39,459 nucleotides of DNA. It comes from Abditibacterium sp. (GTDB lineage Bacteria; Armatimonadota; Abditibacteriia; Abditibacteriales; Abditibacteriaceae). Location of the stretch: NCBI GenBank assembly GCA_043773205.1, contig JAYVFL010000263.1, positions 1 to 39,459 on the forward strand, read 5' to 3'. The notes under the pieces were generated by a model. It saw only the letters and a program-made list of their open reading frames with translations. It made no database searches and was not told where the DNA came from. A program made the translations under genes and the position numbers. Positions 11,814 through 33,478 of the stretch are shown here, in pieces. The first letter of the stretch is position 1. The number at the start of each line of letters is the position of its first letter.

Positions 11814-12767
11814 TCAGCGCGCACCGAACATTGAGGGTTCGGGTATCAAAAGCCGCATATAAGCGGCGTTAATTTCTGTGCCATAAAGCAGCGCTGCAAC
11901 GGCTCCGATAGCGAGCATCGGGCCAAATGGCATCACTTTTCGAAAAGCACGTCGCGCCAGCAAACCGGCAATCGACTTTTTCCCATAACGCTGCTCACGA
12001 CTTTTTGCCCATTTATAAGAGCGAATTGCACGCGGAATTTGTGCACTTACTCCGATGAAAGCTCCCAGGGTGGCAGCGAGAAAGAAGAATGTCAATAATG
12101 TTGCGTTCCAACCTAAATTTGCTGCAATGGCCGCAACCAAAAGAACATCGCCAAAGCCAAGGGCCTCTTTTTTGTAGAGGCGCGAAAAACCCTCCCGCAC
12201 CAACCAAAGTCCTGTTGCACAAATTGTCATCGCTAAAATCGAAGCCGGAAGGGGAGCGGGAAGCATAGCGGCAAAAAGCGCGCCATTTTCCAACCGTGCG
12301 CCTTGAGATGCACGCCACGCATCGAAAGCCACGCCTGCCACGCCCATTAACAGCACCGATTCCAGCTGAATCAAACGCGTGTCGTAGTCCACAAAAAACA
12401 CCACGACGAGCGTAGAAACAAAAACCAGATCTCTGACTAAACGGGCATAATCTCCCGTCCAGGCCGCGAAAAAGCTCCCATCCGCCAGGTTTCCCGACTG
12501 CAATGCGACTAAAAGAAACAAAATGGCCGTTAGCAGCTCGATACCGAAATAACGCCACGAGAATTTTGCTCCGCAATACCGGCATTTTCCGCCCAAATAG
12601 AGTTGCGAAACTAACGGCACCAGGTCCATGCCGCGCAACCGCGTGTTGCAAGTGGGGCAGTGCGATGGCGGATGCGCGATGCTTTCGTGCCTTGGCATTC
12701 GCCAGATACAAACATTCAAAAACGAACCGATATTGGCGCCCAAAACGAACAGAATCAGCGGAAACAT
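11814..12767 (-). CDS. pilD: Prepilin peptidase / N-methyltransferase (A24A)
   Basis: GSFLNVCIWRMP, SHCPTC and GKCRYC Zn motifs, DYDT and GFGDV catalytic aspartates, C-terminal PFGPML. Confidence 0.95.
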   Translation of the reverse strand: MFPLILFVLGANIGSFLNVCIWRMPRHESIAHPPSHCPTCNTRLRGMDLVPLVSQLYLGGKCRYCGAKFSWRYFGIELLTAILFLLVALQSGNLADGSFFAAWTGDYARLVRDLVFVSTLVVVFFVDYDTRLIQLESVLLMGVAGVAFDAWRASQGARLENGALFAAMLPAPLPASILAMTICATGLWLVREGFSRLYKKEALGFGDVLLVAAIAANLGWNATLLTFFFLAATLGAFIGVSAQIPRAIRSYKWAKSREQRYGKKSIAGLLARRAFRKVMPFGPMLAIGAVAALLYGTEINAAYMRLLIPEPSMFGAR

Positions 12768-12782
12768 AGAAAATATGTGCCA

Positions 12783-12816
12783 AGAAAGGGCAGAAGCAAC
12801 CGCTTCTGCCCTTTCT
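12783..12816 (-). terminator. 15-bp perfect hairpin between pilC and pilD (terminator or mRNA-stabilising stem)
   Basis: agaaagggcagaagc-aacc-gcttctgccctttct; only a weak U-tract on the minus strand. Confidence 0.6.
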
Positions 12817-12828
12817 CACACCGGCTTT

Positions 12829-14061: not shown

Positions 14062-14161
14062 AGTTTTTCTCCCTGAAACCAACTGAATTTAAAGCGCGAA
14101 TCGAGAAAAACGCGCGGCAATCGCTATTTGTCGCCGATAAAAAAGGCGACGAGCGTAAAAT

Positions 14162-15442: not shown

Positions 15443-15553
15443 GAAAGATAAAACCTCGAAAAGAATGAAAAACGGAGTCCCCAAAAGAATTCCGTGAAGA
15501 TGACTCGCAAACTCGCGGCCCACACAAAGCGTAGGACGCATTCACCAACCTGA

Positions 15554-15595
15554 ACGTCTGTCGTTCCACGTCTGTTGTTCTACGTCTGTTGTTCT
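15554..15595. repeat. 14-bp tandem repeat x3 (acgtctgtYgttcY) upstream of pilT
   Basis: acgtctgtcgttcc acgtctgttgttct acgtctgttgttct read directly. Confidence 0.85.
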
Positions 15596-15604
15596 ACACG
15601 TCGC

Positions 15605-16129
15605 TTAAATGACGTTAGAAAAACGCATTTCGACGCGTTCACCCCACACAGTGGGATGCGTTGTGACGTGCAACTCGTAAAATTGCTCGTCCACTTGAAG
15701 CCGGATTCGTCCACCTAAAAGAGCATTTTCCTGTTGCAGCTCGATTTGAGCCAGCATTTTGAGACGCGCAACAATTGGTTTAAGTGCCAAAGTCGGCAAT
15801 TTAATATGCTCACGCACATCGCCAGCCACTGTGTAGCGCACGCGCACGTTGCGAGTCTGCGGTTCGATGGAAATAACCGAAGCGCCGTCGCGCACGGCGC
15901 AAAGCAAAATCGTGTTAACGATGCGCTCGACCGGTTCTTGGCCCCGCCAATTATCGGCGCCCGCAGGCGCTTCATTGAGTTCGGGATAAGCCAATTTGAG
16001 CGGCGCAGGCTGCTTCTCTTCTTCGCCGCCCGACTCGAAATCGCGCAGAGTCGCACGTTTTAGCCCTAAAAACGACCAGTATTCGGGTTTCACACGCGCC
16101 TCCTTCACTTGGGATGCGAACTTTCCCAC
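15605..16129 (-). CDS. Stand-alone PilB/GspE N2-domain paralogue without an ATPase domain
   Basis: Its C-terminal ~105 aa align without gaps to the N2 domain of the adjacent PilB (RIVNT.LL.A..DGAS.I.IEPQ...PTVWGE...MR); no Walker motifs; GTG start is uncertain. Confidence 0.75.
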   Translation of the reverse strand: MGKFASQVKEARVKPEYWSFLGLKRATLRDFESGGEEEKQPAPLKLAYPELNEAPAGADNWRGQEPVERIVNTILLCAVRDGASVISIEPQTRNVRVRYTVAGDVREHIKLPTLALKPIVARLKMLAQIELQQENALLGGRIRLQVDEQFYELHVTTHPTVWGERVEMRFSNVI

Positions 16130-16156
16130 ACCGCCGTTTCGCCTCGACAGCGGAAA

Positions 16157-18061
16157 TTAATGGCCGCCGGTGAAAACGACACGCATCACTTCTTCGACTG
16201 TTGTGTGGCCATCTTTGCACTTTTGGAAGCCGTCTTCCTGTAAAGTGCGCATGCCATTGGCGCGCGCGGCTTCGCGAAGTTCCGTGACCGGGCTGCGTCG
16301 CACGATAAGCTCCTGCATTTCTTCGTTGACGCGCATCAGTTCGTAAATTCCGGTGCGGCCTTTGTATCCCGTCTGTTTGCAGACGTCACAACCGCGTCCG
16401 TGCCAGAATTTTTGCGACGGATTCTTAAGCGGATCGAAGCCAAAACGCATCAAAGTTTCGCGCGGCGGCGTGTATTCTTCTTTGCAGCTCTTGCAAATCG
16501 TGCGCGCGAGGCGCTGCGCCAGTGCGCCTGTAAGCGAGGCCGAAATCAAGAACGGCTCGACGCCCATGTCGCCCAAACGTGTCGCGGTCGATGGCGCATC
16601 GTTGGTGTGAATCGTAGAAAGAACAAAGTGACCGGTGAGCGAGGCTTGGACCGCGATTTCCGCTGTTTCCAAATCTCGAATCTCTCCAACCATGATGACG
16701 TCCGGGTCTTGGCGCAAAAAGGCGCGCAGCGCCGTCGCGAAAGTCAGGCCGGCTTTGCGATTGACCTGAACCTGCGTCAAACCGGGCAACTGGTATTCCA
16801 CCGGGTCTTCCACGGTTGAAACGTTCTTTTCAATGGTGGAAACCACGTTCAAAAGCGAATAAAGTGTGGTGGTTTTGCCTGAACCTGTCGGGCCGCAAAC
16901 ATAAAGCATGCCGTTCGGCTGGTTGGCGATGTCGAGCAATTCTTCCTGATGGTCGGGATACAAGCCGATTTTGTCCAAACCGAGCATAACCGAAGATTTG
17001 TCCAGGACGCGCATGACGATTTTCTCGCCCCACACCGTTGGACAGGTGTTGACGCGCATGTCGTATTCCTTGCCCTGCATGGTGAGTTTGATACGTCCGT
17101 CCTGGGGCACACGGCGCTCGGCGATGTTCATTTCCGACATGATTTTGATACGCGAAATCAGCGGATTCAAAACATACTGCGGGATTTTCATCTGCTCGTG
17201 CAAAACGCCGTCGATGCGGTAGCGAATGCGCACGCCGCGTTGCTGCGGCTCGATGTGAATGTCACTGGCTCCGTCTTTCAGGGCGTAAAGCAGCACCGTG
17301 TTCACGATGCGGATAATTGGCGCTTCTTCGGCTAATGTTCCGTTGGACGAGACTGAATCGGGGTTGAGGTTGGTTCCAGCTTTGGCCGCGTCCTCTTCGG
17401 ACACGACCTCGACTTTTTTGACCTTCTTTTTCTTGGCATTTTCGTCTTCGACGACTTCCACCGGCGCGACTTCGCCCAAAATGGCAGCCATGTCGTCGTC
17501 GTATTTGTCCCAGGCTTCGGGTGCAAGCGGGTCGCTGTCGGCTGGTTTTTCGGCGGCGCCATTTTCGCCGGAGTGCCCATTTGAACCGTTGCCGTTGGAG
17601 AGACTGGAGAGTTTGCCGTTTTTAAAGGCTTCAACTTGCGACGGCGCCGCCAAAACGCCGCGAATTTCCATTTTGGTGCGGGTTTTGAGGTCTTCTATCG
17701 CGTAGAAATTTTTGGGGTCGTCCATCGCCACAACGAGCGTGTTGCCCTCGATGGCGACGGGCGTGACTTTCAAACGCGCTTGCAGGTCGTCGGGAACGAG
17801 GCCTTTGGCTTCGTCCGAAGTCGTCATTTTGAGCAAATTGACGAACGAAACGCCGATGACTTCGGCACGCGCTTCGGTAATATCGACGTCCGAAAGCCCC
17901 ATTTCCAACAGAATTGCTTCCATCGGCGTGCCGGGCGCGTTTTGCATGCGCCGTTTGAACTCGTTGCCTTGTTCTTGACTGAGCTTGCCCTTATCAAAAA
18001 GAACGTGAGCAACTGTTTTACGATTCGCGCCCGCGACGGGCTGAGGAGTGGAAAGCGCCAT
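16157..18061 (-). CDS. pilB: Type IV pilus assembly ATPase (GspE/PulE family)
   Basis: GASDIHIEP, ERRVPQDGR, Walker A GPTGSGKTT, VEDPVE, LRQDPDVIMVGEIRD, HTND, CKSC...CDVC Zn motif and GYKGR; GAGG SD before ATG 18061. Confidence 0.95.
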   Translation of the reverse strand: MALSTPQPVAGANRKTVAHVLFDKGKLSQEQGNEFKRRMQNAPGTPMEAILLEMGLSDVDITEARAEVIGVSFVNLLKMTTSDEAKGLVPDDLQARLKVTPVAIEGNTLVVAMDDPKNFYAIEDLKTRTKMEIRGVLAAPSQVEAFKNGKLSSLSNGNGSNGHSGENGAAEKPADSDPLAPEAWDKYDDDMAAILGEVAPVEVVEDENAKKKKVKKVEVVSEEDAAKAGTNLNPDSVSSNGTLAEEAPIIRIVNTVLLYALKDGASDIHIEPQQRGVRIRYRIDGVLHEQMKIPQYVLNPLISRIKIMSEMNIAERRVPQDGRIKLTMQGKEYDMRVNTCPTVWGEKIVMRVLDKSSVMLGLDKIGLYPDHQEELLDIANQPNGMLYVCGPTGSGKTTTLYSLLNVVSTIEKNVSTVEDPVEYQLPGLTQVQVNRKAGLTFATALRAFLRQDPDVIMVGEIRDLETAEIAVQASLTGHFVLSTIHTNDAPSTATRLGDMGVEPFLISASLTGALAQRLARTICKSCKEEYTPPRETLMRFGFDPLKNPSQKFWHGRGCDVCKQTGYKGRTGIYELMRVNEEMQELIVRRSPVTELREAARANGMRTLQEDGFQKCKDGHTTVEEVMRVVFTGGH

Positions 18062-18474
18062 AAAAACCTCTAACGGAAATGGATTCGAGACAACACCGGC
18101 AAACAACGTTATGTCCAAAAGCTGCAAACCCAATTGCAAAAAATGCAAAACAGGTTGGAAACAACACAAAAGCTATACAAGGCACCCAAAAGAGCGCCTC
18201 CAGTTCGAACAGCGATAATTTTACCCGAAAATCATCGAGAGTTGGAAGCAGTTATAAGCTGGCGCACATAGTTTGTGGGCCAATGAGAGCCAGGTCAGAG
18301 GAGAATCGGAGGAGAAAACGCAAGACGCGATGTCAAAGTCAAGCGTTCCCGCGCCCTTCACGCCCGATTTCGCTGATGCGCCTGATTTTGCCGATGCGCG
18401 CAACCTGAACCAATTTCCAGTTGTCCGTTTTTCTGCTTCTCTTCCCGTTTCTGTTAATTGTTCCTGCTCCCAAA

Positions 18475-21400
18475 ATGCGCCGCTCCCTTTCCCTCCTCTT
18501 ACTTTTGAGTTTTTGCTACTCCAATTCGCGCGCCATCGCCGCACCCGAATTTCTCGATGACGAGGCCGAGATCGCCTGCGACGTCGAGTTTTCGCTGCAA
18601 AAAGCCGCTACTGGCCGTTTTGCGCTTCATTTCGACACTCAAAACCCCAAAAACGGCTACATCATGGAAGCGACGCCAACTGGCGCGTCGTTTTTCGCGT
18701 TGCAAAACGGCCAAAAACGGCTTTTATCGAGCGCCAATCTGGTCTGGAAAGCGCAAAATCGTGTGGTTTTGCAGCGTCGGCCCTGGGTGATGCGACTTTT
18801 AATAGATAATCGCGTGGCTTTGACCGCTTTCGATTCCACGTTTCAAAGCGGCAAAATCGGCTCGGAAACCCTTGGGGGTGCGCCCGCATTGGCTACATCA
18901 TTACCCACAGCGGGTTGGAAATGGAACGATGCGCGCGTGCAGCCGGTGGAAAACATTCGTTTCGACGATGATTTCACGCGCGCCGACGGCTCGGGCGATT
19001 CGGCCTGGCAAAGCGCGTCGGGAAAATGGGCGCTCACCGCAAGTTCGACGCACGTTAACGCTCGCAACGCGACGATGAGTTCCAATCCTTTCGCGTTTGA
19101 GGCCAGCGCGCCCAAAAGCAGCGCACTGGCGCGTGCGGGCCGAAAATTCTGGGATTCCTACGATGCGCGCGTGGCCGCGCGTCCGCTGGGGCGCGGCACC
19201 ATCGGCATCGCGGCCTATGTGCAAGACCCCCAAAATTACCTCGCTTTCACCTGGAGCGGAGTGGAAAGTGCGGCATCGCGGCGCCTGATTCGGGTGAAAA
19301 ACGGCGTCACGACGACTTTGGCCAGCGCGTCGGGCGCGTTTTTGCCGCGCGCCTGGAGTGAAATCGGAATTCGCACCTCGCCGGGCGGGGTGGAAGCGCT
19401 TCTCGATGGCGCCCCGGTATTGCGCGCGAGCGATGACTCGTTTGGGCGCGGCCAGGTCGGTTTGATCGCCCAGAATTTGGAAGCCGCGTCCTTCGATGAT
19501 GTGCGCGTGCGCTCGGCAGAAATCTACCGGCAGAACCGCGCTTTGAAAGATGGAAGTTTCGTCAGTCGCGGCGCGTTTTCACTCACCGGACGCGCCAATA
19601 TGGACAACTACCGCTTGCTCGCGCCGCTTCAAAGCGCCCAAAGCGGAGCGTTTGGCCTGGTCGCAGGCTGGAAAGACGCCGAAAACTACACGCTGTTTCG
19701 CGCGGCGAGCGCATCTTCCGTCGATAAAAGCGGCGCGGCGTTTCGCGGTCGCGCGCAAATCGTGCGTTTTGTGAAAGGCGCACCGCAAATTTTGGGAAAT
19801 GAACCGCTGCGCCTCGATTTAAATCGCAATCCGCGCTTGACACTGCGCGCTCAGGAAGGAATTTTAAGCGTTCTCGACGGCGAAAAAACCGTGGTTCAGG
19901 CCGCGCAAAAAGGCCTCACAACGGGCCAGGCGGGACTTTACAACCCGCAATTTTTCGCGCCAGAAACGGTGCTGTATTTCTCGCCGCCCGCCGAAGCGCC
20001 CAAAGTCGCGGCGCGCATGGAAGATGACGCTTACATGGTCGGCTGGGCCAGCGCGACCGGCGAATGGCCACCCACGCCAGGCGATAACGGCCTCGAATTT
20101 TGGAACAGCGGCGAGTTTTTGGGCGATGCGAACCTCGAATTTCCCTGGCGCGCGACTTATAAAGGCAGTTTCGAGATCGCGCTGCGCGCCGAACGCGAAA
20201 AGTTCAATTCCGGCTACATTTTGCGCGGCGAATCGACAGACGACCTCACAAACGTGAAATGGACGCTCCGGCGCGGCGAAAAAGTGCTGACATCGGCCAT
20301 GGCCTCGCTGGACGCGACTTACAAACCGAGCGGCAGCACAAATAGCACCCCGAGCAGCACCACAGGCGATGCCGTGGACGCGACTGCATTCAAGGTCGTG
20401 TTGGATAATGGCAGCATCACGCTTTTTGCGGCGGGCGCTCCCATTTTAAGCACCTTTGACGCGCTGCCTCCAGCGGGACGCTGCATGGCGGTTCGTTCGC
20501 AAGGTTTCCGGGTGCGCGCCGAGCGATTGCGCGCCGTGAGTTCCAACCGCGACGACAGCACTTTTACCGGCGCGCCAACCGATTTTTACTCGACATCGGG
20601 CCGTTGGAGCATCTTTTCGCGCTGGCCATGCTATGGCGACTGGTCGTTTTTCGGTGGCGCTGGCAAAAACCCGACGCTGTGGAGCAAACGCACTTACGGC
20701 GGCGATGTCGTGGCCGAAATGTATGCCCATCCACAGATGAGCCTGCCCAAAGAGCCAGGTTACACCCATCCCGGCGACCTCAATATCACTCTCGCAGGCG
20801 ATGGGAAAAACCTATCTTCGGGCTACTCTTTCGTTTTGGCGGGCTGGGATAACACCCGGTCGCGCGTGATGCGCGGCTCTAAAGTCATCGCGGAAAACGC
20901 GGGCGATGAAGCCTTTTTTCATGAAACCATCACTAATAACATGAAGTGGCACCGCACCTGGTTTCATATTCGTGCCGAAGCGCGCCGCGCCGCTAAAGAT
21001 GGAAAAAACGGCGTTCAACTCACCTTAACTTTGGACGATGCCGTCATCGTAAGTGCTTTCGACCCCAATCCGCTGCCTCAGTGGGAAAAAGGTGGCCGCG
21101 TCGCGTTTTGGACGCTGGATTCCACCATCATGATCGCGCGCGCCAAAGTCGAAGCCGAATATCTGGGCCTCAAAACGCTGCCCGCCGGTTTGCTCGATTC
21201 AACTCCGCCCCTCGCAACCCCGCTCGCGGCCAATGCGAAAGCGCCGATTCCCATCGTTTCAGGCGACGATGCCACTGCCATCGTGAGCGCCGAAACAGAA
21301 GGTTGGAGCGTCACAGATCCAGCATCTGGCGGGATTTTCGAGGTGAAACTGCCGCTTGCAAAGGTGGAAATCACGCCGAAAACCCGCTTGGAGTTGGATG

Positions 21401-21714
21401 TTCAAATTCCCGCTGGCGTTAAAATCGACGCTTATCTTCAAAGCGAAGACGCGCTTTCAACCATCGAACTTACGGGTGACCAGCCCAACGACCCGATGGC
21501 GCCTTCGCTTGGAAAAATGACCAAAAACGGCGAAAAATGGGGTTTCGATATCGGCGCGGCGCTGCAAAAACGTTTTCCCAGCCAAAAAACCTGGAAAATC
21601 GATGCTCTGAGCCTGGGCGCGCGCCACGGCGAGGCCTATCGCTGGGTTGGCTTCGATGGCAATGCGCTCGGCAGCACTTACAAATTACGCGGCTGGCGTT
21701 TAGTCGAAGGCTAA
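18475..21714 (+). CDS. Large secreted protein with repeated concanavalin-A/LamG (DUF1080-like) beta-sandwich domains
   Basis: Signal peptide MRRSLSLLLLLSFC…AIA|A; repeated end-of-domain motifs (FQSGKIG, FGRGQVGL…SFDDVRV, TTGQAGL, KGGRVAFW). Start placed at ATG 18475. Confidence 0.6.
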   Translation: MRRSLSLLLLLSFCYSNSRAIAAPEFLDDEAEIACDVEFSLQKAATGRFALHFDTQNPKNGYIMEATPTGASFFALQNGQKRLLSSANLVWKAQNRVVLQRRPWVMRLLIDNRVALTAFDSTFQSGKIGSETLGGAPALATSLPTAGWKWNDARVQPVENIRFDDDFTRADGSGDSAWQSASGKWALTASSTHVNARNATMSSNPFAFEASAPKSSALARAGRKFWDSYDARVAARPLGRGTIGIAAYVQDPQNYLAFTWSGVESAASRRLIRVKNGVTTTLASASGAFLPRAWSEIGIRTSPGGVEALLDGAPVLRASDDSFGRGQVGLIAQNLEAASFDDVRVRSAEIYRQNRALKDGSFVSRGAFSLTGRANMDNYRLLAPLQSAQSGAFGLVAGWKDAENYTLFRAASASSVDKSGAAFRGRAQIVRFVKGAPQILGNEPLRLDLNRNPRLTLRAQEGILSVLDGEKTVVQAAQKGLTTGQAGLYNPQFFAPETVLYFSPPAEAPKVAARMEDDAYMVGWASATGEWPPTPGDNGLEFWNSGEFLGDANLEFPWRATYKGSFEIALRAEREKFNSGYILRGESTDDLTNVKWTLRRGEKVLTSAMASLDATYKPSGSTNSTPSSTTGDAVDATAFKVVLDNGSITLFAAGAPILSTFDALPPAGRCMAVRSQGFRVRAERLRAVSSNRDDSTFTGAPTDFYSTSGRWSIFSRWPCYGDWSFFGGAGKNPTLWSKRTYGGDVVAEMYAHPQMSLPKEPGYTHPGDLNITLAGDGKNLSSGYSFVLAGWDNTRSRVMRGSKVIAENAGDEAFFHETITNNMKWHRTWFHIRAEARRAAKDGKNGVQLTLTLDDAVIVSAFDPNPLPQWEKGGRVAFWTLDSTIMIARAKVEAEYLGLKTLPAGLLDSTPPLATPLAANAKAPIPIVSGDDATAIVSAETEGWSVTDPASGGIFEVKLPLAKVEITPKTRLELDVQIPAGVKIDAYLQSEDALSTIELTGDQPNDPMAPSLGKMTKNGEKWGFDIGAALQKRFPSQKTWKIDALSLGARHGEAYRWVGFDGNALGSTYKLRGWRLVEG

Positions 21715-24017: not shown

Positions 24018-24779
24018 TTAACGCAGCAAGTCGCGCCGAAAATCTGGTCCCAGTTCGTTCGCCGTGAGCTTGATTTCAAATTGTCCCACCGCATAAGGCC
24101 CCATTTCGTATTGGTTGAACACCCAGCGCAAGCCGTCGCGCCCGGCGGCGAAGTTGTTGAATTGCGCGGTTTCGAGCGTTTTGACGCTGCCATCTTGCAC
24201 CCACATCGCGTTTGGGTCTTTTTTCAGTTTGGCGAAGATTTTGGCTTCCACTTCTTTGCGATAAGGCGTGCCGGAACGGAAGAAATCGCCCAGAGTGAGA
24301 GCTTTGGCCCGCCCGTTAATCACCGCGAAATTGAGCGGGCTAACTACGGTCATGCCGTGCGCGCCGCCTTCGAAAGCGTATGTCACAAGTTCCGTCGAGA
24401 TCAAACGGCGCGTGGCATAAAACTCGGTTGACGGCGCGCTCGCGTAATCGAAGGGCACAGATGCGACCTCCTTTTCAAGCTGAGCCTGAGTGCTTTTCAC
24501 CCAGGCGTTGAAGCCCCAAACGATTCGGGAGCGCAATTTTGCGTTGGCGAAGCGCGCCAGCGGAGTGCGGGCGCGAAACACCGGATAGACCGCTTGGGCC
24601 GTGAAACCTTTGCCGCGCGCACTCAGCGTTTTGAGCCGCGCGACACGACTCAGCGCGGTCAATTTCTGCCCGCCGACGCTTTCCTGAGCATCGGAAGAGA
24701 CCGTGGCCAGCGAAAATGCGGTTAACAGCGAAAATGCGGTAACCCGCGTTGAAAAGGGAGAAAGTGGGCAAATTTTCAT
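24018..24779 (-). CDS. Secreted DUF3298/DUF4163 (RsiV/PdaC-like) protein
   Basis: Signal peptide; YAFEGGAHG, LTLGDFF and FNQYEMGPYAVG motifs; ATGA overlap with folC. Confidence 0.8.
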   Translation of the reverse strand: MKICPLSPFSTRVTAFSLLTAFSLATVSSDAQESVGGQKLTALSRVARLKTLSARGKGFTAQAVYPVFRARTPLARFANAKLRSRIVWGFNAWVKSTQAQLEKEVASVPFDYASAPSTEFYATRRLISTELVTYAFEGGAHGMTVVSPLNFAVINGRAKALTLGDFFRSGTPYRKEVEAKIFAKLKKDPNAMWVQDGSVKTLETAQFNNFAAGRDGLRWVFNQYEMGPYAVGQFEIKLTANELGPDFRRDLLR

Positions 24780-25993
24780 GATTTGGGTGTTGTGGGCGTT
24801 GCGGTGCGCGGCACCTCAGCGATAGTTGTGAACGAACCGGTCACTAAAATCGTGTCTTCGGGACGCGCCAGGAGTTTGGCACGCGCGAGGGCGGCTTCGA
24901 CAGGCGTGATTTCCTCAACGTGATGGCAAAATTGGCGCGCGATTTCAGCGATTTGCGAAGCAGTTGCCGCGCGCGGCGAGTTAGATTGCGTTGCGATGAC
25001 GGTTTTGGCCAGCGGCGCGAGAATTTGCGTCATTTGGGCGAAATCTTTGTCCGCTAAAATGCCCAATACGAGGATGAGATTGGGGGCATCGATTTGGCGC
25101 CGCTTCAATTCGACGGCGATGCTTTGAGCGCCATCGGGGTTGTTGGCGCCATCGATGACAATGTGTGGCGAAGCGGCGATAAATTCGAAGCGGCCCGGCA
25201 CTTCGCTCATGTGATGTGCCGGGAGTTCAGGTGTCGACCAGTGGAGTTGTCTTTTGAATTGGCTGGCCACAACCATTGCAAAAGCCCGATTTTGATGTTG
25301 AAACGAGGGCAAATTCAACGTAGAATTGACGAAAACCGCGCCAATTTGCTCGCAATGGTCGCGGAAAACCGCGAGAACGTTCTCTTTGTGTTCCGCCGTG
25401 ACAAAAGGCCGTCCCGCGCGCGCGATGCAGACTTTATCGGCGGCAATTTCTTCCAATGTGTTGCCCAATCGGTCCATGTGGTCGAGCGCGACGTGAGTAA
25501 CGACCGAAATTAGTGGATCGGTGACATTGGTTGCGTCCCATTTGCCGCCCAGTCCCACCTCGATAACAGCGGCATCGACATTTTGGCGGGCGAAATGCCA
25601 CAAACCCAGAAATGTCACGACTTCGAACTCGGTGGGCTGGCCCAAAGTGCGCGTAACGGCTTCGATATGCGGTTTGGCATCGTTGAAAAGCGCGTCCAGA
25701 TCGGCGTCGCAAATGGCGCCTTCGAAAAGTCCCTGGCCGGGCATAATGCGGATGCGTTCGTTCCAATTGTAGAGGTGAGGCGAAGTGAAAAGCCCGATTG
25801 TGCGCCCGTTTTGCGCTAAAATGCGCGCGGCGAATTCGCAGGTCGAGCCTTTGCCGTTGGTGCCGCCCACCAGCAAAACCGGGTAGCTGTTCTGGGGGTT
25901 CCCGGCGCTCTCGAGCAGGGCACGAATGCGTTCCAGGCCGGGTCGAATGCCAAAACGCTGCAAATTTTGCAGATAAGTGTCGAGTTGAGTCAT
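24776..25993 (-). CDS. folC: Bifunctional folylpolyglutamate synthase / dihydrofolate synthase
   Basis: GTNGKGS, FTSPHL, NERI, TEFE, EVGLGG.WDATNV, LDH…LG, PGRFE and VTGSF motifs. Start placed at ATG 25993 (alternative 26053). Confidence 0.95.
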   Translation of the reverse strand: MTQLDTYLQNLQRFGIRPGLERIRALLESAGNPQNSYPVLLVGGTNGKGSTCEFAARILAQNGRTIGLFTSPHLYNWNERIRIMPGQGLFEGAICDADLDALFNDAKPHIEAVTRTLGQPTEFEVVTFLGLWHFARQNVDAAVIEVGLGGKWDATNVTDPLISVVTHVALDHMDRLGNTLEEIAADKVCIARAGRPFVTAEHKENVLAVFRDHCEQIGAVFVNSTLNLPSFQHQNRAFAMVVASQFKRQLHWSTPELPAHHMSEVPGRFEFIAASPHIVIDGANNPDGAQSIAVELKRRQIDAPNLILVLGILADKDFAQMTQILAPLAKTVIATQSNSPRAATASQIAEIARQFCHHVEEITPVEAALARAKLLARPEDTILVTGSFTTIAEVPRTATPTTPKS

Positions 25994-26176
25994 GGTTTTG
26001 AGCGCGATTTCGGGGGCGAATAGGCCCTGAAACTGGGGGCGAAAAATCGCCATTATGTTAACATATGGCTACGTTCCTGCCCGAAATTGAAGGAGTAAAC
26101 CGCTCTACAGCGCGTGCTTCTGTTTTCCTGTTTCGTCTTTGACGTGAATCCCTGATTATTTTTGAGGTTTCGCTGA

Positions 26177-29100
26177 ATGCGTTGGCCCCGCCGCATACCC
26201 TCTCTCTTTTTACTTTCGCTGGTTATTTGGGTCGTTTTGTGGCCAAATACCAGTTTTGCGCAAACTTCCGATGCCGCAACTTCTGATGTCGCCGCGCGTT
26301 TGCGCTCTGATGTCGAGGCGCTGACCGCTTTTCCTTCCCGCGTGCCTGGAACGCCAGGAAATCGCGCGGCGGCGGCGTTTGTTGAAGCGCGATTCAAGCA
26401 AATCGGGCTTCAACAAACGCGCGCCGACCAAGATTTCATCACCGCGCCCGTGACTCAAAGCGCCAGCCTGACCCTGGGCGGGCGGGTTTTGGAAATCGCG
26501 CCGATTTACCCGAATCACGTTGTCGCCTCAACCACGCCCATCGCCGGGCTTTCCGGCCCGCTGGTTTATGCTGGGCAGGGCAGACCCGTCGATTTCAACG
26601 GGCAAAAAGTGGCGGGTTCGGTTGTGGCGCTCGATTTCAATTCGGGTATGAAGTGGATTACAGCCGCCGATTTGGGCGCCAAGGCCATCGTCTTTTTGGA
26701 GCCAACTCTCACCGAGCGCGGCGAAGCGGAGCGGAAATTCACGTATTTGCCCGTCGAAGTGCCCCGATATTACGCGCGCGGCGCCGTAGCAGACGCGATT
26801 CGGGCTTCCAGCGGCCAAAACGCCACCGTGAAATCGCTTGTGGAGTGGAATCGGGTTAAAGTCGCCAATGTTTTGGGATTTCTGCCTGGCAAAAACCCGC
26901 CCGCCAGCCCGAAAGAGAAGCCCGTCGCCAACACGGTGATCATTTCGGCTTACTTCGATTCGATGTCGGTTGTGCCCGATTTGGCGCCTGGAGCCGAAGC
27001 CGCTGGCAACATGGCCGCGCTTTTGGAAGTCGCCCGGCGTTTCAAGGCCAACCCGCCATCTTATAACGTGCTTTTCGTGGCGAATGGTTCGCATCACATG
27101 GCCTTGGCCGGAGTGCGAAATTTCATCGCTAACCACGTTATCGACCGCGATGGCAAAGGCGACGCCGCCAAAAAAGCCGAAATCGCATCGTATCGCGCTT
27201 TTATCGGCTTGGATTTGACTTCGCGCACCAAAACGGTGGGAATTTTCGCCAAATCGTGGTTCTACAACCAGATGACAGTGGGCAGCGAAAACATCCTGCT
27301 CAACCAGTTTTCCAACCTCGCCAAGTCGGTGGGACGTTACGCACAGGAAGAGGCCGATAAAACCAAATCGCCCATCGAAGAAGCCTTTGTCGATGGCATT
27401 ACAGGTCGCGAAGGTCGCACCTGGCGCTCTTATTTGCCCTCGCAAATCGCGCTCGATTCCGAAGCGGCGACCATGGCGGCGCTGCCCGGATTTTCGTTTG
27501 CCACCGCCAACGATTCCCGGTTGTTACAGGACACGCCTTTCGACACTGTCGCGGCGATGAACCTGCCCAATTTAACCTCTCAAGTGGAATCAGTTGAAGG
27601 TTTGATGCGGCGCACTCTGATTGACGTGGCCGAAGGCGACGCGAAAAGTGCGCCGCTTTTGCCTGCGCCCGGAGTTTTGTCGAAGAATTTCGGTTTTGTG
27701 ACGGGACGCGCCATTTTTCGCGATGTCTCCAAAGCCACCAGTTTTTTGCCCGATACGCCGCTTCCCGATTCGCAAATCGGCAACGCGGGCGTGCAAGCCG
27801 TCGGCGCCGTGGTTTCCGACCGCATTCTCGGCCCGGTTTTAGAAAACAAAACTTATTCGGGCGTGCGCGGCGTAATGATTGAGCGCGCCCAATACTCGCT
27901 GGGCGCCAAGGGCATCAATCAGGTTTCGCAGTTCACTTTTGTCGGCCCCCGCGTGGGCGACCCCAAAGGTGGCGGCACTCCGATTTACGAATTTGAAGCC
28001 TTCGCCATTAACCGCGACGGTCACATGATTTTCGCGCCCGACCGCGGCGCCGAACGCCAACGCTTCATCCCCACTTTCATCAAAGCCAATGCAACGCGCG
28101 ATTATAAAGATGAAAAGCTGCGTCAAATTAACCCGCAGGCCTCGCTGATTTGCTTCAAAGCGCGCGCTGTCACGATTTTCGATACCTTGGATCAGCGTTA
28201 CTTCTCGGTTTTGAAGGAGATGACGGTCTTGGATGCCCGAACCGATGCCAGTCCGGTCGAATACTCGTTTTTGCGGCCCAATGCGCCGGGCGGCATCGCC
28301 GAAATCGAACCCATCGCGGTGATTTTTGGCAAGCGAGACGAGCGCTTCAAACTCATTATGGCGGCGGGTCTGCTGGGAAAACGGCTGGTTTTGCTGCGCA
28401 CAGAAACTCCCGACCTCAAAACCCAGCCCATCTCTTACGAAGGCGCTGGATTCACGGTTGACGACACCTCGGATGCGCTTCGGATTCCCTATTTGGCCTA
28501 TCAAACGGCGCTCGATTTGTGGACGCTCGACCAGCAGCGCATTCAGCTTCTCAAAGGTTTTGGCATTAACAACGAACGCGTCGATGCTTTGCATGGCGCG
28601 GCAGGTTGCCCGCCGGGGGAAAAGAGCGCGTTTTTATGTCCGAAGGCGGCGATTGCACTCCCAACGGGCGGCTCGCTCAAACTGGCGGGAGATGCGCTGG
28701 GCGCGCAGCAATACGACACGTTTTATCGCGAATCGCGCCGCGCTTTCGCCCTCGAATCGCGCGCTTATCCCGACGTGGAAGGCACCTCGCAGGACGTGCT
28801 GAAAGGCATCATCTTCTATCTGGCGCTGCTGCTGCCCTTCGCTTATTTCATGGAGCGGATTCTGTTCGGCTTTTCCGATGTGCGCAAGCAAATCGCGGGC
28901 ACATCCTTTGTGTTCCTCGTTGTTTTTGGCGCGATTCGGTTTGTCCATCCGGCGTTTGAACTCGCGGCGACACCGTTCATTATTTTGCTGGCGTTCGTGA
29001 TTTTGGCGCTGACTGTTGTGGTAACGGCGTTTTTGCAGTCGAAATTCGAAGCCGAACTCAAACGCATGAAGCAGGGCGTGCATTACGCCGACATGGGACG

Positions 29101-31294
29101 ACTTTCGGCGCTTGGCGCGGCGCTAAGCCTGGGCGTTGCCAACATGCGGCGGCGCCCGACGCGCACGGCGCTGACCTGCACCACGCTGATTCTGCTCACC
29201 TTCACGGTGCTATCTTTCACATCGGTGACGGCCAACATCGCGAATTTCGCGCGGCCCTGGGGCGATGAAACCCGTCCGCCAGCTTATCAGGGCTTTTTGG
29301 TGCGTCAGCCCGATTGGGGATCCATGTCCGAAGTGGCTGTTGGATCTTTGCGCAACGAACTCACGGCGCAAAAATTGGGTGAACCGGCGCTTCGCGCCTG
29401 GTATTTATCGCGCGATCAGGGCGAACCGCTTCAAATTCGCGTCAACAGCGCAAGCGACCCCAACAGCTTTTACTACGCGCCCGCGCTGGTTGGAATGACG
29501 CCGCAGGAAGAAGAAATCGGTTCGCCCATTGTCAAAACTCTTTTGCCGGGTGGCCGCTGGTTCCGCCCCGGCGAAACCGATGTGGCGCTTTTGCCACGCG
29601 ATGTTTTGCTCGATGAAGCCACCAAATCTGCCGAGCGTCCCGCCGTTACAAACGGCGCCGCCCCAACGACTTTAGTCGCGGATTCAACACCGAAAGGCTC
29701 GCCGTTGGGCCTGACTTTAGCCAATGCGGTCGGCTCGAAAATTCAGGTGGGCGGGAAAACCTTCACGGTTATCGGCGTTTTTGACGACCGCAAATGGTAT
29801 GGCCGCCAGGCGGCGGGCAACTTGCGCGACATCGACAACGAAGAATTCACGCCGGTCGATTATTCCAGCGATTCCACGCGTCAAAACCAGACGGCGGGCA
29901 CCAATGCCGCGGCTTCGGGCGGCGAAGTGCAGGTTCAGCGCTACGAACATATGCAGGCCAACGCGCTTCTGGTGATTCCCTACCAAACCGCGCTTCACAT
30001 GGGCGCCACCACGCGCTCTTTTGCCGTTGGAATCAAAAATCCAGACGCCGCGCAAAGCGAACTCGAAGATTTGATGTCGAGGGCCGCGCTCGGAATTTTC
30101 GGCGCCACGCCCGACAAAGCCAACGGCGGCAAGCTCACGGCGCGCTTATATTCCTCGGTGGAAGCGACTTCGTATGAGGGTTTTGCTTCGCTCGCGGTGC
30201 CCATTTTGATTGCGGCGCTGATTATCGCCAACACCATGCTCGGTTCCGTTTACGAGCGCACGCGCGAAATCGGCATTTATTCCTCGATTGGACTGGCGCC
30301 GATTCACATCGCGACGCTTTTTATTGCCGAAGCCATCGTTTACGCGGTTTTAGGCTCGATTTCCGGTTATCTTATCGCGCAAATCACCGCGAAAATTATC
30401 ACCGCGACCAATTTATTGCCTGGAATTACGCTCAACTATTCGAGTTCCTCGGCTGTTATCGCGACGCTCATCGTGATGATGACGGTGCTGCTTTCCACGC
30501 TTTATCCGGCTTATGCGGCCTCGAAATTGGCGAATCCCGACTCGGAAAAGAAAGATTTGGGCGATCCGGTAGGCGATTTATGGCGTTTGCAATTTCCGTT
30601 CACCGTGTCGGGGTTGCAATCTTTGGGCATGGCGCAGTTTTTGGCCGATTTTTTCGAGCAGCACACCGACACTTCGGTCGGAAAATTCTACACCGATAAA
30701 ATCAATTTGAACGGCTTGCCGCTCTATGAGGCTGTCGAGCTTTTGAACAATGGCGTTCTCGATCCCGAGATTGAAGTTCACGGCGATGAAAACTCATCTA
30801 ACGGTCAAAACTCAACTAAAGGTCAGAAAAATGGCGCGGCGCCGAGGAAAACCTTGCTGCGCCGCATGCCAAAGCCATCGGAAACGGCGCTCCTAAGCGG
30901 AACAGACACGCCGATGATGCCCTCTACGCCGCCAAAAGGCGGGCGCATCGAATTGGAAAACATCGCTGCCGACCCGCAAACCGAGGTTTATCGTTTGTCG
31001 ATGCGCACTTGGCTTGCGCCCTTCGATATGGGCGTTTCGCAGGATACCGATATCATTTTGCTGCCTTCGGATGAGCCTGGGCTTTTCGAATTGCAACTAC
31101 GTTTAGAGCGCAAAAGCGGCGAAATCGCGGCCTGGAAACGAGTCAACCGCGAATTCATGACCGAACTGCGCAAACAGCTTTTGGTGTGGCGCACGGTGAA
31201 GTCGGCATCGCAACAAGAATACATTTTGCGGGGCCGCGCGCATGTGGCGGGTCAGAAAGTGCCGGTTGAAGAGGCGGGCGCCGTCGTTGTTTAG
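26177..31294 (+). CDS. Fusion protein: signal peptide, M28-peptidase-like (PA-containing, apparently inactive) ectodomain, TM bundle, MacB-type periplasmic domain, FtsX permease, cytoplasmic tail
   Basis: SRVPGTPGNRAAAAFV, PA-like GPLVYAGQG…GAKAIVF, NVLGFLPG, AALLEVAR; MacB TM1 NMRRRPTRTALT; GKTFTVIGVF; FtsX motif NTMLGSVYERTREIGI..SIG…LFIAEA. Confidence 0.85.
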   Translation: MRWPRRIPSLFLLSLVIWVVLWPNTSFAQTSDAATSDVAARLRSDVEALTAFPSRVPGTPGNRAAAAFVEARFKQIGLQQTRADQDFITAPVTQSASLTLGGRVLEIAPIYPNHVVASTTPIAGLSGPLVYAGQGRPVDFNGQKVAGSVVALDFNSGMKWITAADLGAKAIVFLEPTLTERGEAERKFTYLPVEVPRYYARGAVADAIRASSGQNATVKSLVEWNRVKVANVLGFLPGKNPPASPKEKPVANTVIISAYFDSMSVVPDLAPGAEAAGNMAALLEVARRFKANPPSYNVLFVANGSHHMALAGVRNFIANHVIDRDGKGDAAKKAEIASYRAFIGLDLTSRTKTVGIFAKSWFYNQMTVGSENILLNQFSNLAKSVGRYAQEEADKTKSPIEEAFVDGITGREGRTWRSYLPSQIALDSEAATMAALPGFSFATANDSRLLQDTPFDTVAAMNLPNLTSQVESVEGLMRRTLIDVAEGDAKSAPLLPAPGVLSKNFGFVTGRAIFRDVSKATSFLPDTPLPDSQIGNAGVQAVGAVVSDRILGPVLENKTYSGVRGVMIERAQYSLGAKGINQVSQFTFVGPRVGDPKGGGTPIYEFEAFAINRDGHMIFAPDRGAERQRFIPTFIKANATRDYKDEKLRQINPQASLICFKARAVTIFDTLDQRYFSVLKEMTVLDARTDASPVEYSFLRPNAPGGIAEIEPIAVIFGKRDERFKLIMAAGLLGKRLVLLRTETPDLKTQPISYEGAGFTVDDTSDALRIPYLAYQTALDLWTLDQQRIQLLKGFGINNERVDALHGAAGCPPGEKSAFLCPKAAIALPTGGSLKLAGDALGAQQYDTFYRESRRAFALESRAYPDVEGTSQDVLKGIIFYLALLLPFAYFMERILFGFSDVRKQIAGTSFVFLVVFGAIRFVHPAFELAATPFIILLAFVILALTVVVTAFLQSKFEAELKRMKQGVHYADMGRLSALGAALSLGVANMRRRPTRTALTCTTLILLTFTVLSFTSVTANIANFARPWGDETRPPAYQGFLVRQPDWGSMSEVAVGSLRNELTAQKLGEPALRAWYLSRDQGEPLQIRVNSASDPNSFYYAPALVGMTPQEEEIGSPIVKTLLPGGRWFRPGETDVALLPRDVLLDEATKSAERPAVTNGAAPTTLVADSTPKGSPLGLTLANAVGSKIQVGGKTFTVIGVFDDRKWYGRQAAGNLRDIDNEEFTPVDYSSDSTRQNQTAGTNAAASGGEVQVQRYEHMQANALLVIPYQTALHMGATTRSFAVGIKNPDAAQSELEDLMSRAALGIFGATPDKANGGKLTARLYSSVEATSYEGFASLAVPILIAALIIANTMLGSVYERTREIGIYSSIGLAPIHIATLFIAEAIVYAVLGSISGYLIAQITAKIITATNLLPGITLNYSSSSAVIATLIVMMTVLLSTLYPAYAASKLANPDSEKKDLGDPVGDLWRLQFPFTVSGLQSLGMAQFLADFFEQHTDTSVGKFYTDKINLNGLPLYEAVELLNNGVLDPEIEVHGDENSSNGQNSTKGQKNGAAPRKTLLRRMPKPSETALLSGTDTPMMPSTPPKGGRIELENIAADPQTEVYRLSMRTWLAPFDMGVSQDTDIILLPSDEPGLFELQLRLERKSGEIAAWKRVNREFMTELRKQLLVWRTVKSASQQEYILRGRAHVAGQKVPVEEAGAVVV

Positions 31295-31355
31295 TTAGCG
31301 TTAAGACCTAAAAATTTTCTTTAAACGCTTCATTTATCACGCGAATTTTCGAGTC

Positions 31356-33431
31356 ATGGCATTACTTTCTCAAATCGAACCCGAAAAAAAGGGAGGCCTT
31401 ACCGGTCCACTCGATATTTCTTCGCCAACCAACGATGCATCACTGGATGTCACGGGCGAAGACGAAGAGTTTTACGACGGGTTTTCCTGGAAAACCGTGA
31501 TCGGCGCGCTGTTCATCGGTTTCATTATGATGCCGGGTTCGATTTATCTGGGCCTTATCGCGGGGCAGGGCATGGGGCCAGCCGCCGAATGGGTCACGAT
31601 CATCCTGTTCATGGAGGTCGCGCGGCGCTCCTATCAAACCATGAAAAAGCAGGAAATTTACCTGCTTTATTACGTGGGCGCCGCCCTGACAACACAAGTG
31701 GCCGGAATTGCGATTGCGGGTGGCCCGTTTGCGACTTTAATTTGGAACTCTTACGTGGCCAACACGCCCATCGCCAACCAGTTGGGCATTACCGAAGGGC
31801 TTCGCAACGCGCCGTGGGCCGCAATTATCGGCGATTCGCCCGGTTTATTGAACCGCACCTTTTTCAGCGCCGATTGGCTCCCCGCCATCGGTTTGCTGAT
31901 GTTCAACCAGCTTTTTGGTCGCATGACATCCTGGGGCTTAGGTTATGTGCTGTTTCGCATCACGAGTGATGTCGAAAAACTGCCGTTTCCCCTCGCTCCC
32001 ATCGCGGCAGAAGGCGCGACGGCTCTGGCCGAATCGTCGTCGCAAAAAGAGGGCTGGCGCTGGCGTATCTTTTCGATTGGTTCGATGATTGGCGTTGGCT
32101 GGGGCGCGATGTATATCTTGCTTCCCGCCGTCACCGGCCTGATTTTCGCGCAACCCATCACGATTTTGTCGGTGCCGTTCATCGACTACACCGCCAACAC
32201 CCAAAAAATCTTGCCCGCCGCGCTGACAGGTCTTGGAACCGATTTAGGCCAGGTATTCATTGGGTTTTTGCTGCCGCTTCCGGTTGTGGTGGGCACTTTC
32301 ATCGCCTCGATTGGGTGTTTCGTTTTTGCGAATCCAATTTTGCAAAACGGCGGCATCTTGCAGCGTTTTGGATACAACGGCGGCGTGCTGAAAACCTGGG
32401 TTCAGGGCACCGATATGCTGCAAACGCAGCTCGTCAACACGCTCGATTTCTGGCTTTCCTTTGGAATTGGCACCTCGCTTGTGGTCGCTGTTATCGGGGT
32501 TTTCAGCGTGGTGCGCTCGCTAATTAAGGCGCGCAAACAGAATGAAATGGGCGTGGGCACGTCCAGTTTGGTGCCGCCGCCCGGTCGCGGTGACATCTCG
32601 ATTTGGCTTTCTCTGGCGATTTTTGCCGTGGGAACGGCGGCCTACATCATCATGTGCCACGCTCTGGTGCCAGCCTTCCCGCTGTGGGTTTTGATCTTCT
32701 TCGGTTTCGTCTGGACGCCGATTTTCTCTTATATCAACGCGCGCATGGCGGGTTTGGCGGGCACGAACGTCTCTATTCCTTACGTGAAGGAAGCCAGTTT
32801 CATGCTTGCGGGTTACCGCAATGTTGACATTTGGTTCGCCCCGATTCCACTCGCCGATTACGGCTACATGGCGACTCATTTTCGCACCGTTGAACTGACC
32901 AAAACCAAGTTCACTTCCATCATCAAGGTCGAACTTTTGATGCTGCCAATTATGCTGGGTTGTTCGCTGCTTTTCTGGAGCTTCATCTGGAAATTGTCGC
33001 CGATTCCGGCTGCGAGCTACCCATTTGCCGCCAAATTTTGGCCCATTAGCGCGCAAACGCAGGCGCTGTGGTTCACCGCCAACCGCGAAGGCGAAAGCAA
33101 CTTCTTGTTGCAATCGATTCGCATGCCTTACATCCTGGCGGGTGGCGGCGCGGCAGTTTTGTCGTTTGGAGCCATCGTCGCGGGCGGCTTGCCGGTGCTG
33201 CTGTTTTACGGCCTCATCAACGGAACTCACACTTTGCCCGCATACGCTCTGCCGCAGTTCATCGGGGCGATGCTGGGCCGCTATTACTTCCAAAAACGCT
33301 ATGGAAAAGAGAATTGGCGGGCATTTACGCCGGTTTTAGTCGCCGGATATTACTGCGGCATGGGCTTAATTGGAATGGCGGCGGTTGCACTCGCTCTATT
33401 GTCCAAAAGCGTGTCGCGGTTGCCGTTTTAA
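31356..33431 (+). CDS. OPT-superfamily-like polytopic membrane protein (putative peptide transporter)
   Basis: 691 aa with many hydrophobic segments; FSWKTVIGALFIG…YLGL.AG N-terminus and EKLPFP motif resemble OPT/YSL transporters; 61 bp downstream of the fusion gene. Confidence 0.7.
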   Translation: MALLSQIEPEKKGGLTGPLDISSPTNDASLDVTGEDEEFYDGFSWKTVIGALFIGFIMMPGSIYLGLIAGQGMGPAAEWVTIILFMEVARRSYQTMKKQEIYLLYYVGAALTTQVAGIAIAGGPFATLIWNSYVANTPIANQLGITEGLRNAPWAAIIGDSPGLLNRTFFSADWLPAIGLLMFNQLFGRMTSWGLGYVLFRITSDVEKLPFPLAPIAAEGATALAESSSQKEGWRWRIFSIGSMIGVGWGAMYILLPAVTGLIFAQPITILSVPFIDYTANTQKILPAALTGLGTDLGQVFIGFLLPLPVVVGTFIASIGCFVFANPILQNGGILQRFGYNGGVLKTWVQGTDMLQTQLVNTLDFWLSFGIGTSLVVAVIGVFSVVRSLIKARKQNEMGVGTSSLVPPPGRGDISIWLSLAIFAVGTAAYIIMCHALVPAFPLWVLIFFGFVWTPIFSYINARMAGLAGTNVSIPYVKEASFMLAGYRNVDIWFAPIPLADYGYMATHFRTVELTKTKFTSIIKVELLMLPIMLGCSLLFWSFIWKLSPIPAASYPFAAKFWPISAQTQALWFTANREGESNFLLQSIRMPYILAGGGAAVLSFGAIVAGGLPVLLFYGLINGTHTLPAYALPQFIGAMLGRYYFQKRYGKENWRAFTPVLVAGYYCGMGLIGMAAVALALLSKSVSRLPF

Positions 33432-33446
33432 GCGAAATTGAAAACA

Positions 33447-33478
33447 AAAACGCCCGCTTCGGTCGAAGCGGGCGTTTT
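33447..33478 (+). terminator. Intrinsic terminator closing the M28-FtsX/OPT operon
   Basis: aaaacgcccgcttcg-gt-cgaagcgggcgtttt. Confidence 0.85.

Follow-up and report, generated by a model that had tools for sequence, protein, structure and literature searches.

What does a permease subunit of the MacB/FtsX type do beside an oligopeptide transporter (OPT)-like protein when no ATP-binding cassette (ABC) ATPase is encoded next to them? The question arises from two genes of Abditibacterium sp. (Armatimonadota) in assembly GCA_043773205.1, on positions 1 to 39,459 of contig JAYVFL010000263.1, a stretch of 39,459 nucleotides referred to here as the window. The first gene (26177–31294, plus strand) is an open reading frame (ORF) for a 1705-aa large subunit of the FtsX/MacB type with an exported pseudo-peptidase head, recognised by Pfam FtsX and by PDB sequence matches to MacB, LolC, YtrF and FtsX. 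The second (31356–33431, plus strand) encodes a 691-aa membrane protein with the OPT/Yellow-Stripe fold, the conserved core permease, recognised from its model, the match of that model to HvYS1 and homologues in the phylum. A preliminary description of the locus had noted the lack of an ATPase. This holds for the window, where a scan of the 23 long ORFs revealed no ABC ATPase, but not for the genome (G000), in which the cognate MacB-type ATPase lies on contig C221. The pair is the membrane core of a seven-component system, the ATPase of which is encoded elsewhere in the same genome.

A split operon and its ATPase

Partner genes were collected from 40 loci of the phylum, ~20 kb each, which were chosen among the listed matches for long contigs; 8 belong to the window's family, Abditibacteriaceae, and 32 lie outside it. 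The partner queries were derived from some of the same 40 loci. Counts of core genes come from tblastn, hidden Markov models or genome searches, and the scripted ORF calling, which used a rough composition score, missed some genes. The large gene adjoins the OPT-like gene in 35 of the 40 loci. Outside the family, the pair is accompanied by a Cys-rich protein of ~320 aa (22 of 32 loci), a PqqD-like protein (20), a small FtsX subunit of ~210 aa (24) and a MacB-type ATPase (23). The prevailing gene order is large subunit, OPT, Cys-rich, PqqD, small FtsX, ATPase. The eight loci of the window's family have the pair without these partners, a motor gene being present in the ~20 kb fetched in 0/8. The genome of the window nevertheless carries the PqqD-like gene (cut by the contig end), the small FtsX gene and the ATPase gene consecutively on C221; its Cys-rich gene is located on C531. 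The C221 ATPase is 66% identical to its operonic counterparts and matches ABC_tran (E 2e-35) with intact Walker A, LSGGQ and DEPT motifs. The distance between the small FtsX gene and the pair, measured in six family genomes with long contigs, is 55 kb to 2.5 Mb; the ATPase gene is within ~1 kb of the small FtsX gene. The operon of this lineage is thus split rather than reduced.

The PqqD domain (PF05402) scores above its cut-off in two homologues (E 3e-12 and 5e-13). The small FtsX subunit usually has no periplasmic domain, a 201-aa representative having a short loop only; one small FtsX of 543 aa (L058:15302-16933) carries a 340-residue insertion where others have the short loop. The Cys-rich protein has no PDB sequence match and contains a short internal repeat (probability 91.8, 40 columns). 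Among the neighbour clusters of 120 loci, no precursor-peptide or modifying-enzyme gene was recurrent (among ORFs of ≥100 aa), and neither were MacA/TolC, LolA or EnvC. In five loci (L048, L049, L053, L066, L069), a membrane-anchored protein with a DUF1559 H-X9-DG-type end is inserted in the operon after the OPT core.

Co-occurrence of the components

A homologue of the OPT-fold core is present in 250 of 301 sampled genomes of the phylum, mostly as a single copy and at ~45–52% identity outside the family. Fifty genomes were compared, of which 30 have the OPT-like gene (13 from the family and 17 chosen from other families) and 20 do not (those listed of 51 negatives, 90–100% complete). The large subunit, the small FtsX and the Cys-rich protein are each found in 30/30 of the former versus 0/20 of the latter. 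The same distribution is obtained for the ATPase at ≥60% identity, a line set after viewing the data, with one negative having a 52% match that resembles generic paralogues in the positives, and for the PqqD-like protein at E 4e-12 or better, three negatives having weak matches (E 3e-6 to 8e-5). In 29 of the 30 positive genomes, no more than ~3 kb separates the small FtsX gene from the best ATPase match. ATPase and small FtsX are kept in 13/13 genomes of the window's family, where the operon is split, and are absent together with the pair in 20/20 negatives. Presence varies even inside the genera g18 (2/4) and g40 (1/2) and inside six families. Because a control family, the DUF1559 pilin-like proteins, occurs in 51/51 genomes, the pattern is not a general lifestyle signal. 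The same count led us to reject these proteins, frequent neighbours though they are, as an obligatory component, as they do not track the system.

Outside this sample we analysed the best 80 of 566 loci, many of which are cut by contig ends, from Poribacteria, Latescibacterota, Gemmatimonadota, Planctomycetota, Nitrospirota, Desantisbacteria, Omnitrophota and further Armatimonadota. The large gene is present within 10 kb in 65 of these loci; the Cys-rich gene occurs in 22, PqqD in 21, the ATPase in 20 and the small FtsX in 12. At the level of whole genomes, 34 of which were searched (completeness not given), the small FtsX is found in 33 (single in 32), the ATPase in 32 and the Cys-rich protein in 29, and the small FtsX adjoins an ATPase in 30/34. 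In three genomes (G209, G111, G037) the OPT gene and the large gene are apart, yet both are present. Co-occurrence of homologues of the two genes, as predicted in the preliminary description, is borne out by both sets of loci. Its proposal of a two-gene system that might dispense with ATP fails for bacteria, given the conservation of the cognate ATPase in 23/32 loci, 30/30 versus 0/20 genomes and 32/34 cross-phylum genomes. The opposite outcome that it had envisaged, a conserved ATPase in a standard ABC exporter, came true as to the ATPase, but even so a standard ABC exporter is not what the system is.

The cross-phylum loci also vary in composition. Three Poribacteria-type genomes (G301, G303 and G304; loci L074, L079 and L073) encode two cognate ATPase paralogues, one in the operon of the large gene and one beside the small FtsX gene, and the large subunit of this type reaches ~2400–2500 aa, with big insertions in the head. 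At six Latescibacterota/Gemmatimonadota loci (L135, L136, L140, L141, L142, L148) the OPT core follows an operon for a giant tetratricopeptide repeat (TPR) protein, ExbB, ExbD and a peptidyl-prolyl isomerase (PPIase), which hints at a link to outer-membrane uptake.

A further set was retrieved with a query from a cluster named Thermofilaceae. It comprises 20 partly redundant metagenome loci, 11 at 64–98% identity to the query and the rest at ~30%, and their archaeal label is inferred. The large gene and the core occur together in 17/20 of these archaeal-type loci, and both with a DUF6785-like gene in 11/20. Heads of this type keep the first zinc-binding His of M28 peptidases, and some keep GADD.

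A family of OPT-fold paralogues

The seventh component is a family of 650–700-aa membrane proteins consisting of DUF6785 and DUF6784, which stand beside the pair in 17 of the 120 loci. An HH alignment with the core family covers 570 columns (probability 99.0, E 4e-18), from which we conclude that DUF6785 is, at the sequence level, a distant full-length OPT-fold paralogue of the core. The DUF6785 profile has no PDB sequence match. Proteins of this family are found in 30/30 genomes with the OPT-like gene versus 0/20 without it, and in 32/34 cross-phylum genomes. Matches per genome range from 1 to at least 24 in the former set and up to at least 32 in the latter, these being capped figures rather than true gene counts. 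Their numbers are variable, whereas the core is mostly single-copy. Ten paralogues of one genome are 43–69% identical. The window's genome has four DUF6785 genes, two of them on contigs that resemble strain duplicates: G000:C13 11647-18254 and G000:C15 1-6425 share nusG, PPIase-like, DUF6785 and glycoside-hydrolase-like genes at ~80% DNA identity, probably because a second strain is mixed into the assembly.

The neighbours of 22 DUF6785 genes in 20 loci of four genomes include members of the glycoside hydrolase (GH) families GH66/GH13, GH32, GH43, GH2, GH51, GH39, GH29 and GH116, a glucuronyl esterase, LacI-type regulators and sugar isomerases or oxidoreductases. The loci are high-scoring matches and the four genomes are rich in glycan genes; of the 83 neighbours in the test scan, 11 short ones were omitted, and one third-neighbour was included. 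The Pfam scan of the fixed-position control loci was stricter (1e-9 versus 1e-6), a difference evened out for pilins only, by one motif search. The pilin motif is found near DUF6785 in 8 versus 2 of 20 loci (p 0.065), and either a pilin or a glycan enzyme in 14 versus 7 (p 0.056). A strong polysaccharide-locus signal, considered at the outset, was rejected as not significant versus the control loci. According to RNA-seq and proteome tables of Fervidibacter sacchari, a hypothetical protein labelled 'OPT superfamily', an FtsX and a PqqD gene are expressed on all eight polysaccharides (available part of PMC11535203); the accessions could not be tied to the present families and serve as a lead only.

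The large subunit and its remodelled head

The anatomy of the large subunit, present in one copy in the window's genome, is as first described, with an exported M28-like head, about three extra helices, a MacB/FtsX module and a cytoplasmic tail, and this is supported by hydropathy, Pfam, profiles and the model. A predicted Sec signal peptide (residues 1–28; 26177–26260, plus strand, as all features of this gene), with a hydrophobic segment at residues 10–28 and a cleavage site judged by eye, precedes an M28 peptidase fold with an inserted PA domain (residues ~35–496; 26279–27664), assigned from the profile match to 2ek8, Foldseek, VIA and column counts. Beta-rich domains and long helices, confident in the model, link the head to the membrane (residues ~497–873; 27665–28795). 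Next are three extra, strongly conserved transmembrane (TM) helices (residues 874–953; 28796–29035), seen in hydropathy and containing the invariant residues P887, E893, R894 and H924–F927; they form a putative docking surface for the OPT-fold subunit. The amphipathic helix, TM1 (residues 999–1017) and periplasmic core domain of MacB type (residues 974–1336; 29096–30184) were delimited by hydropathy and a weak MacB_PCD match (E 3e-4, below its cut-off). The FtsX C-terminal permease domain (residues 1337–1450; 30185–30526), with three helices at 1337–1442, matches PF02687 above the cut-off (residues 1339–1450, E 1e-13); in its coupling-helix motif ERxREIG, aligned to MacB 5lil, E1360, R1361, E1364 and I1365 are invariant. 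NCBIfam FtsX/ADOP gives partial matches below cut-off. The protein has the membrane layout of type VII ABC permeases, namely, TM1, an extracytoplasmic domain, TM2–4 and a coupling helix between TM2 and TM3. The cytoplasmic tail domain (30527–31291), defined by conserved motifs, is also found in archaeal-type homologues; it has no PDB sequence match and bears a lineage-specific insertion (~1520–1600, occupancy 0.19).

A profile of residues 30–1030 (67 sequences) matches M28/PA aminopeptidases best (2ek8, E 3.5e-25), followed by nicalin (E 3e-9), transferrin receptor and nicastrin (E 9e-4). The head model (predicted local distance difference test, pLDDT, 88.6) matches the M28/PA fold in VIA with Z 26.7 and a root-mean-square deviation (rmsd) of 8.1 over 375 aligned residues, Foldseek concurring, and also matches the GPI transamidase chain 7w72_A (Z 18.5). 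These matches are mostly confined to the M28/PA part and rarely cover residues 497–873. Since active bacterial M28/PA aminopeptidases score far higher, the likeness to nicalin is taken as that of a shared fold, and descent from nicalin/nicastrin is not favoured over descent from ordinary M28 peptidases. The preliminary description was also right in considering the peptidase non-canonical. Compared with 2ek8, the zinc and catalytic set of active M28 enzymes (HxD, bridging D, EE, D, H) is replaced: among 89 sequences, the first zinc His is Tyr in 71 and His in 2, the bridging Asp position is variable, x-His stands for the EE pair and the last His is Asp in 87. A different polar set (R55, D261, H306, D346, E429, D446, R448, D452) is nearly invariant in the same 89 sequences, which marks the metal site as remodelled rather than lost by decay.

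The OPT-fold core permease

The OPT fold of the second protein, surmised earlier, is confirmed by structure only. Its model (pLDDT 90.4) matches barley HvYS1 in Foldseek (E 2e-11, TM-score 0.58–0.65) and, over the whole length, in VIA (Z 20.5, rmsd 4.3, 547 aligned), where the next match has Z 5.3. By sequence, the window protein has no match to Pfam OPT (PF03169) at E 0.1, while 3 of 25 homologues match, at best with 6e-7; neither the core permease nor its profile finds a PDB sequence. Of the NPG and KIPPR motifs named for the OPT family (PMC3061005, in part), the former is present in 2/104 core homologues and the KIPPR type in 0/104. The closest named relative, at 89% identity, is from Abditibacterium utsteinense. 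A complex prediction with residues 38–691 of the core and two membrane pieces of the large subunit gave a score of 0.03 and a mark of 0.32, without folded controls, and was used neither way. Some core homologues are 810–1080 aa long, with extra segments (P0124, P0125, P0128, P0130, P0138; L099, L107, L131); one is named Planctomycetota. At L031:4522-11988 (G256:C432), large subunit and OPT core form a single 2488-aa ORF, maybe through a lost stop codon; being a lone case, it was not counted as proof of contact.

Relation to known transporters

The assembly, for which we found no earlier description, is built from known folds, and its contacts and mechanism are predicted. It resembles type VII ABC systems (MacB, LolCDE, FtsEX, YbbAP-TesA) in the four-helix FtsX topology, the coupling helix and the MacB-type ATPase (PMC5985334, in part), and LolCDE in having two different membrane halves. 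It is set apart from those systems by the 840-residue pseudo-peptidase head, the three extra helices and the cytoplasmic tail of one half, by the usual absence of a periplasmic domain from the other, and by its partners, which are OPT-fold permeases and two cytoplasmic proteins. With OPT/YSL proteins (PF03169; HvYS1, PDB 7wsr/7wst) the core shares the whole-chain fold, but it is only 14–16% identical to HvYS1, is almost devoid of the family motifs and is genomically bound to an ABC motor, and two divergent OPT-fold types, core and DUF6785, always occur together in the 50-genome test. The available part of a review of the OPT family names peptidases and a xylanase as genome neighbours, and no ABC motor (PMC3061005).

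The likeness to group II energy-coupling factor (ECF) transporters is one of logic only, one ATP module serving many dispersed, variable membrane subunits (PMC7755397, in part). The copy-number and co-occurrence patterns fit such sharing, which for the present system is a prediction. Only the ABC ATPase fold is common to both: FtsX is not EcfT, and 650–700-aa OPT-fold proteins are not small S-components. EcfA/EcfA' are the paired ATPase paralogues of ECF systems, of which the two cognate ATPases of the three Poribacteria-type genomes are reminiscent. Nicastrin is a non-catalytic M28-fold member of a membrane complex; like it, transferrin receptor, nicalin and GPAA1, the head combines an M28 fold devoid of the canonical zinc site with tethering to a membrane complex. 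It differs from these in being prokaryotic, fused to an ABC permease and nearer in sequence to active bacterial M28/PA aminopeptidases.

A search of the open-access literature (subscription papers and bioRxiv supplements lie outside it) retrieved no paper with DUF6785, DUF6784 or their accessions, and no description of this system, including PqqD/RRE, oligopeptide transporter and FtsX together. Even under a mechanism other than the one proposed below, a conserved seven-part machine, present in 250/301 sampled genomes of the phylum as judged by its core permease, is one for which we found no description.

Proposed mechanism and alternatives

The reading that we favour, and to which we would give a little less than an even chance, is that of an ATP-driven modular importer in which one type VII ABC motor would serve exchangeable OPT-fold (DUF6785) permeases. 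It is favoured because a fixed, mostly single-copy core with an ATPase goes with a variable DUF6785 family that never occurs without the core in the 50-genome test. LolC and LolE pair as two membrane halves; in the same way, the large and small FtsX subunits would pair and bind two ATPase domains via their coupling helices. The OPT-fold core would dock onto the three extra helices, and a DUF6785 paralogue would supply the second half of a YS1-like dimer and set the substrate. ATP-driven helix movement could then drive or gate the elevator motion of the OPT fold, with the non-catalytic peptidase head as a lid or receptor outside and the Cys-rich and PqqD-like proteins as a cytoplasmic adaptor. 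Known systems lend parts of this model a precedent and are a further reason for our preference: in type VII ABCs, which have no translocation channel of their own, ATP is turned into movement (PMC5985334, in part), YS1 is a dimeric elevator transporter with scaffold domains and a mobile core domain (PMC9691689, in part), and ECF S-components exchange on one shared ATP module (PMC7755397, in part). We suggest more tentatively that this represents an unrecognised class of ABC importers, in which a MacB/FtsX motor drives the elevator stroke of OPT-fold heterodimers composed of a conserved core and dozens of swappable DUF6785 subunits; with similar reserve, such a class might span many little-studied bacterial phyla and some archaea. 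If true, this would unite two superfamilies regarded as working separately, namely type VII ABCs, considered not to transport solutes through the membrane in which they reside, and OPT/YSL proton symporters, and would give a function to the large unannotated DUF6785/DUF6784 family in Armatimonadota, Poribacteria, Latescibacterota, Gemmatimonadota and Planctomycetota. Many members of the phyla bearing DUF6785 are polysaccharide degraders. Loss of the single-copy motor should then silence all DUF6785 routes together, and cultured Armatimonadota exist.

Several observations weigh against an importer of this kind. The OPT/YS proteins known so far are proton symporters and do not require an ATPase (PMC9691689, in part), and all support for the importer is genomic or predicted, the 50 genomes being related and non-randomly picked. 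Exchange of subunits is not always required, since in six genomes there is only one DUF6785 match. As the small FtsX usually has no periplasmic domain, a MacB-style bellows action cannot be presumed. The PqqD/RRE domain hints at peptide binding and would be superfluous for a sugar importer. A glycoside hydrolase or esterase within two genes is found at 9/20 DUF6785 loci versus 5/20 fixed-position controls (p 0.32; the added third-neighbour is outside this count), and the neighbours of some DUF6785 genes are housekeeping genes (Lgt/LspA, Lon/ClpX-like). The small FtsX, PqqD-like, Cys-rich and cognate ATPase genes are found within 10 kb at 0/20 archaeal-type loci. For the substrates, varied catabolic breakdown products, sugars included, are most likely; catabolic uptake is a lean and not a result, and the link to sugars is weak.

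The PqqD domain, above its cut-off, is better explained if the system handles peptides or proteins, which we consider rather unlikely overall. PqqD-like and Cys-rich proteins would bind a cytoplasmic peptide, the OPT-fold subunits would carry it through the membrane, and the FtsX module and its head, driven by ATP, would extract, release or modify it outside, or relay a signal, as in other type VII systems. Peptides are among the substrates of the OPT family (PMC3061005, in part) and type VII ABCs act outside the membrane (PMC5985334, in part); the invariant polar pocket of R55, H306, D346, E429, R448 and D452 is a candidate for a new catalytic or binding site, and the first His and occasional GADD of archaeal-type heads point the same way. 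However, the neighbourhoods of the 120 loci yielded no recurrent precursor-peptide or modifying-enzyme gene, 10–30 DUF6785 paralogues near catabolic genes find no ready reason, and the monoderm hosts of the archaeal-type loci would make a Lol-like role at the outer membrane less likely. That DUF6785 depends on the core in an all-or-none way is accounted for equally well if the core is an assembly or quality-control machine that inserts, folds or removes DUF6785 transporters, which then act alone as proton symporters. Nicalin and GPAA1 have scaffold roles in eukaryotic membrane complexes, and the head would be a scaffold of this sort; its matches to nicalin, nicastrin and 7w72_A agree with this, and a PqqD-like peptide chaperone would suit client handling. 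We regard such a machine as unlikely: active bacterial M28/PA aminopeptidases (E 1e-25) stand far above nicalin, the available part of PMC3061005 mentions no such partners for ordinary prokaryotic OPTs, and the second, strongly conserved OPT-fold protein of the core is left unexplained.

The modular importer also has to be weighed against two simpler views of the pair. In one, close to the preliminary description, the two genes form a self-contained, ATP-independent unit whose dead peptidase captures peptides and hands them to a proton-coupled OPT. The isolation of the pair in the window's family, with its distant motor genes, and the archaeal-type loci with no motor within 10 kb would suit it. 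The coupling-helix motif is nevertheless invariant, and the ATPase and small FtsX persist in 13/13 family genomes and disappear with the pair in 20/20; this very improbable model is largely refuted for bacteria already, and an ATP-free form may exist at archaeal-type loci. Finally, a type VII ABC system and an OPT transporter, each working by itself, might be neighbours by history only, which we find hardly credible. The OPT gene is apart from the large gene in 5/40 and 15/80 loci, but genomes with separated genes (the three named above) still contain both, and the linkage extends across many phyla and archaeal-type contigs.

Surroundings of the pair in the window

The two genes are co-oriented, 61 bp apart and divergent from folC (24776–26053, minus strand, with Mur ligase domains), which is separated from the large gene by 123 bp; the ORF coordinates agree with the arrangement first described. 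A terminator was thought to close the pair. A 14-pair GC-rich hairpin between A and T runs is indeed present at 33447–33478 and is a plausible terminator, but it received a score from the scan for the minus strand only, and the region has no excess of terminator-like sites (20 observed versus 23.8 in shuffles). Elsewhere in the window, a type IV pilus/type II secretion-like cluster (2539–18169, minus strand) encodes PilB- and PilT-type ATPases, PilC/GspF, a prepilin peptidase, four N-methyl pilin-like proteins and a 1389-aa PilX-like giant with no Pfam match. Two exported proteins of ~1080 aa (18421–21714, plus strand) and ~630 aa (583–2475, plus strand) have no Pfam match at E 0.1, the former having no NCBIfam match either.

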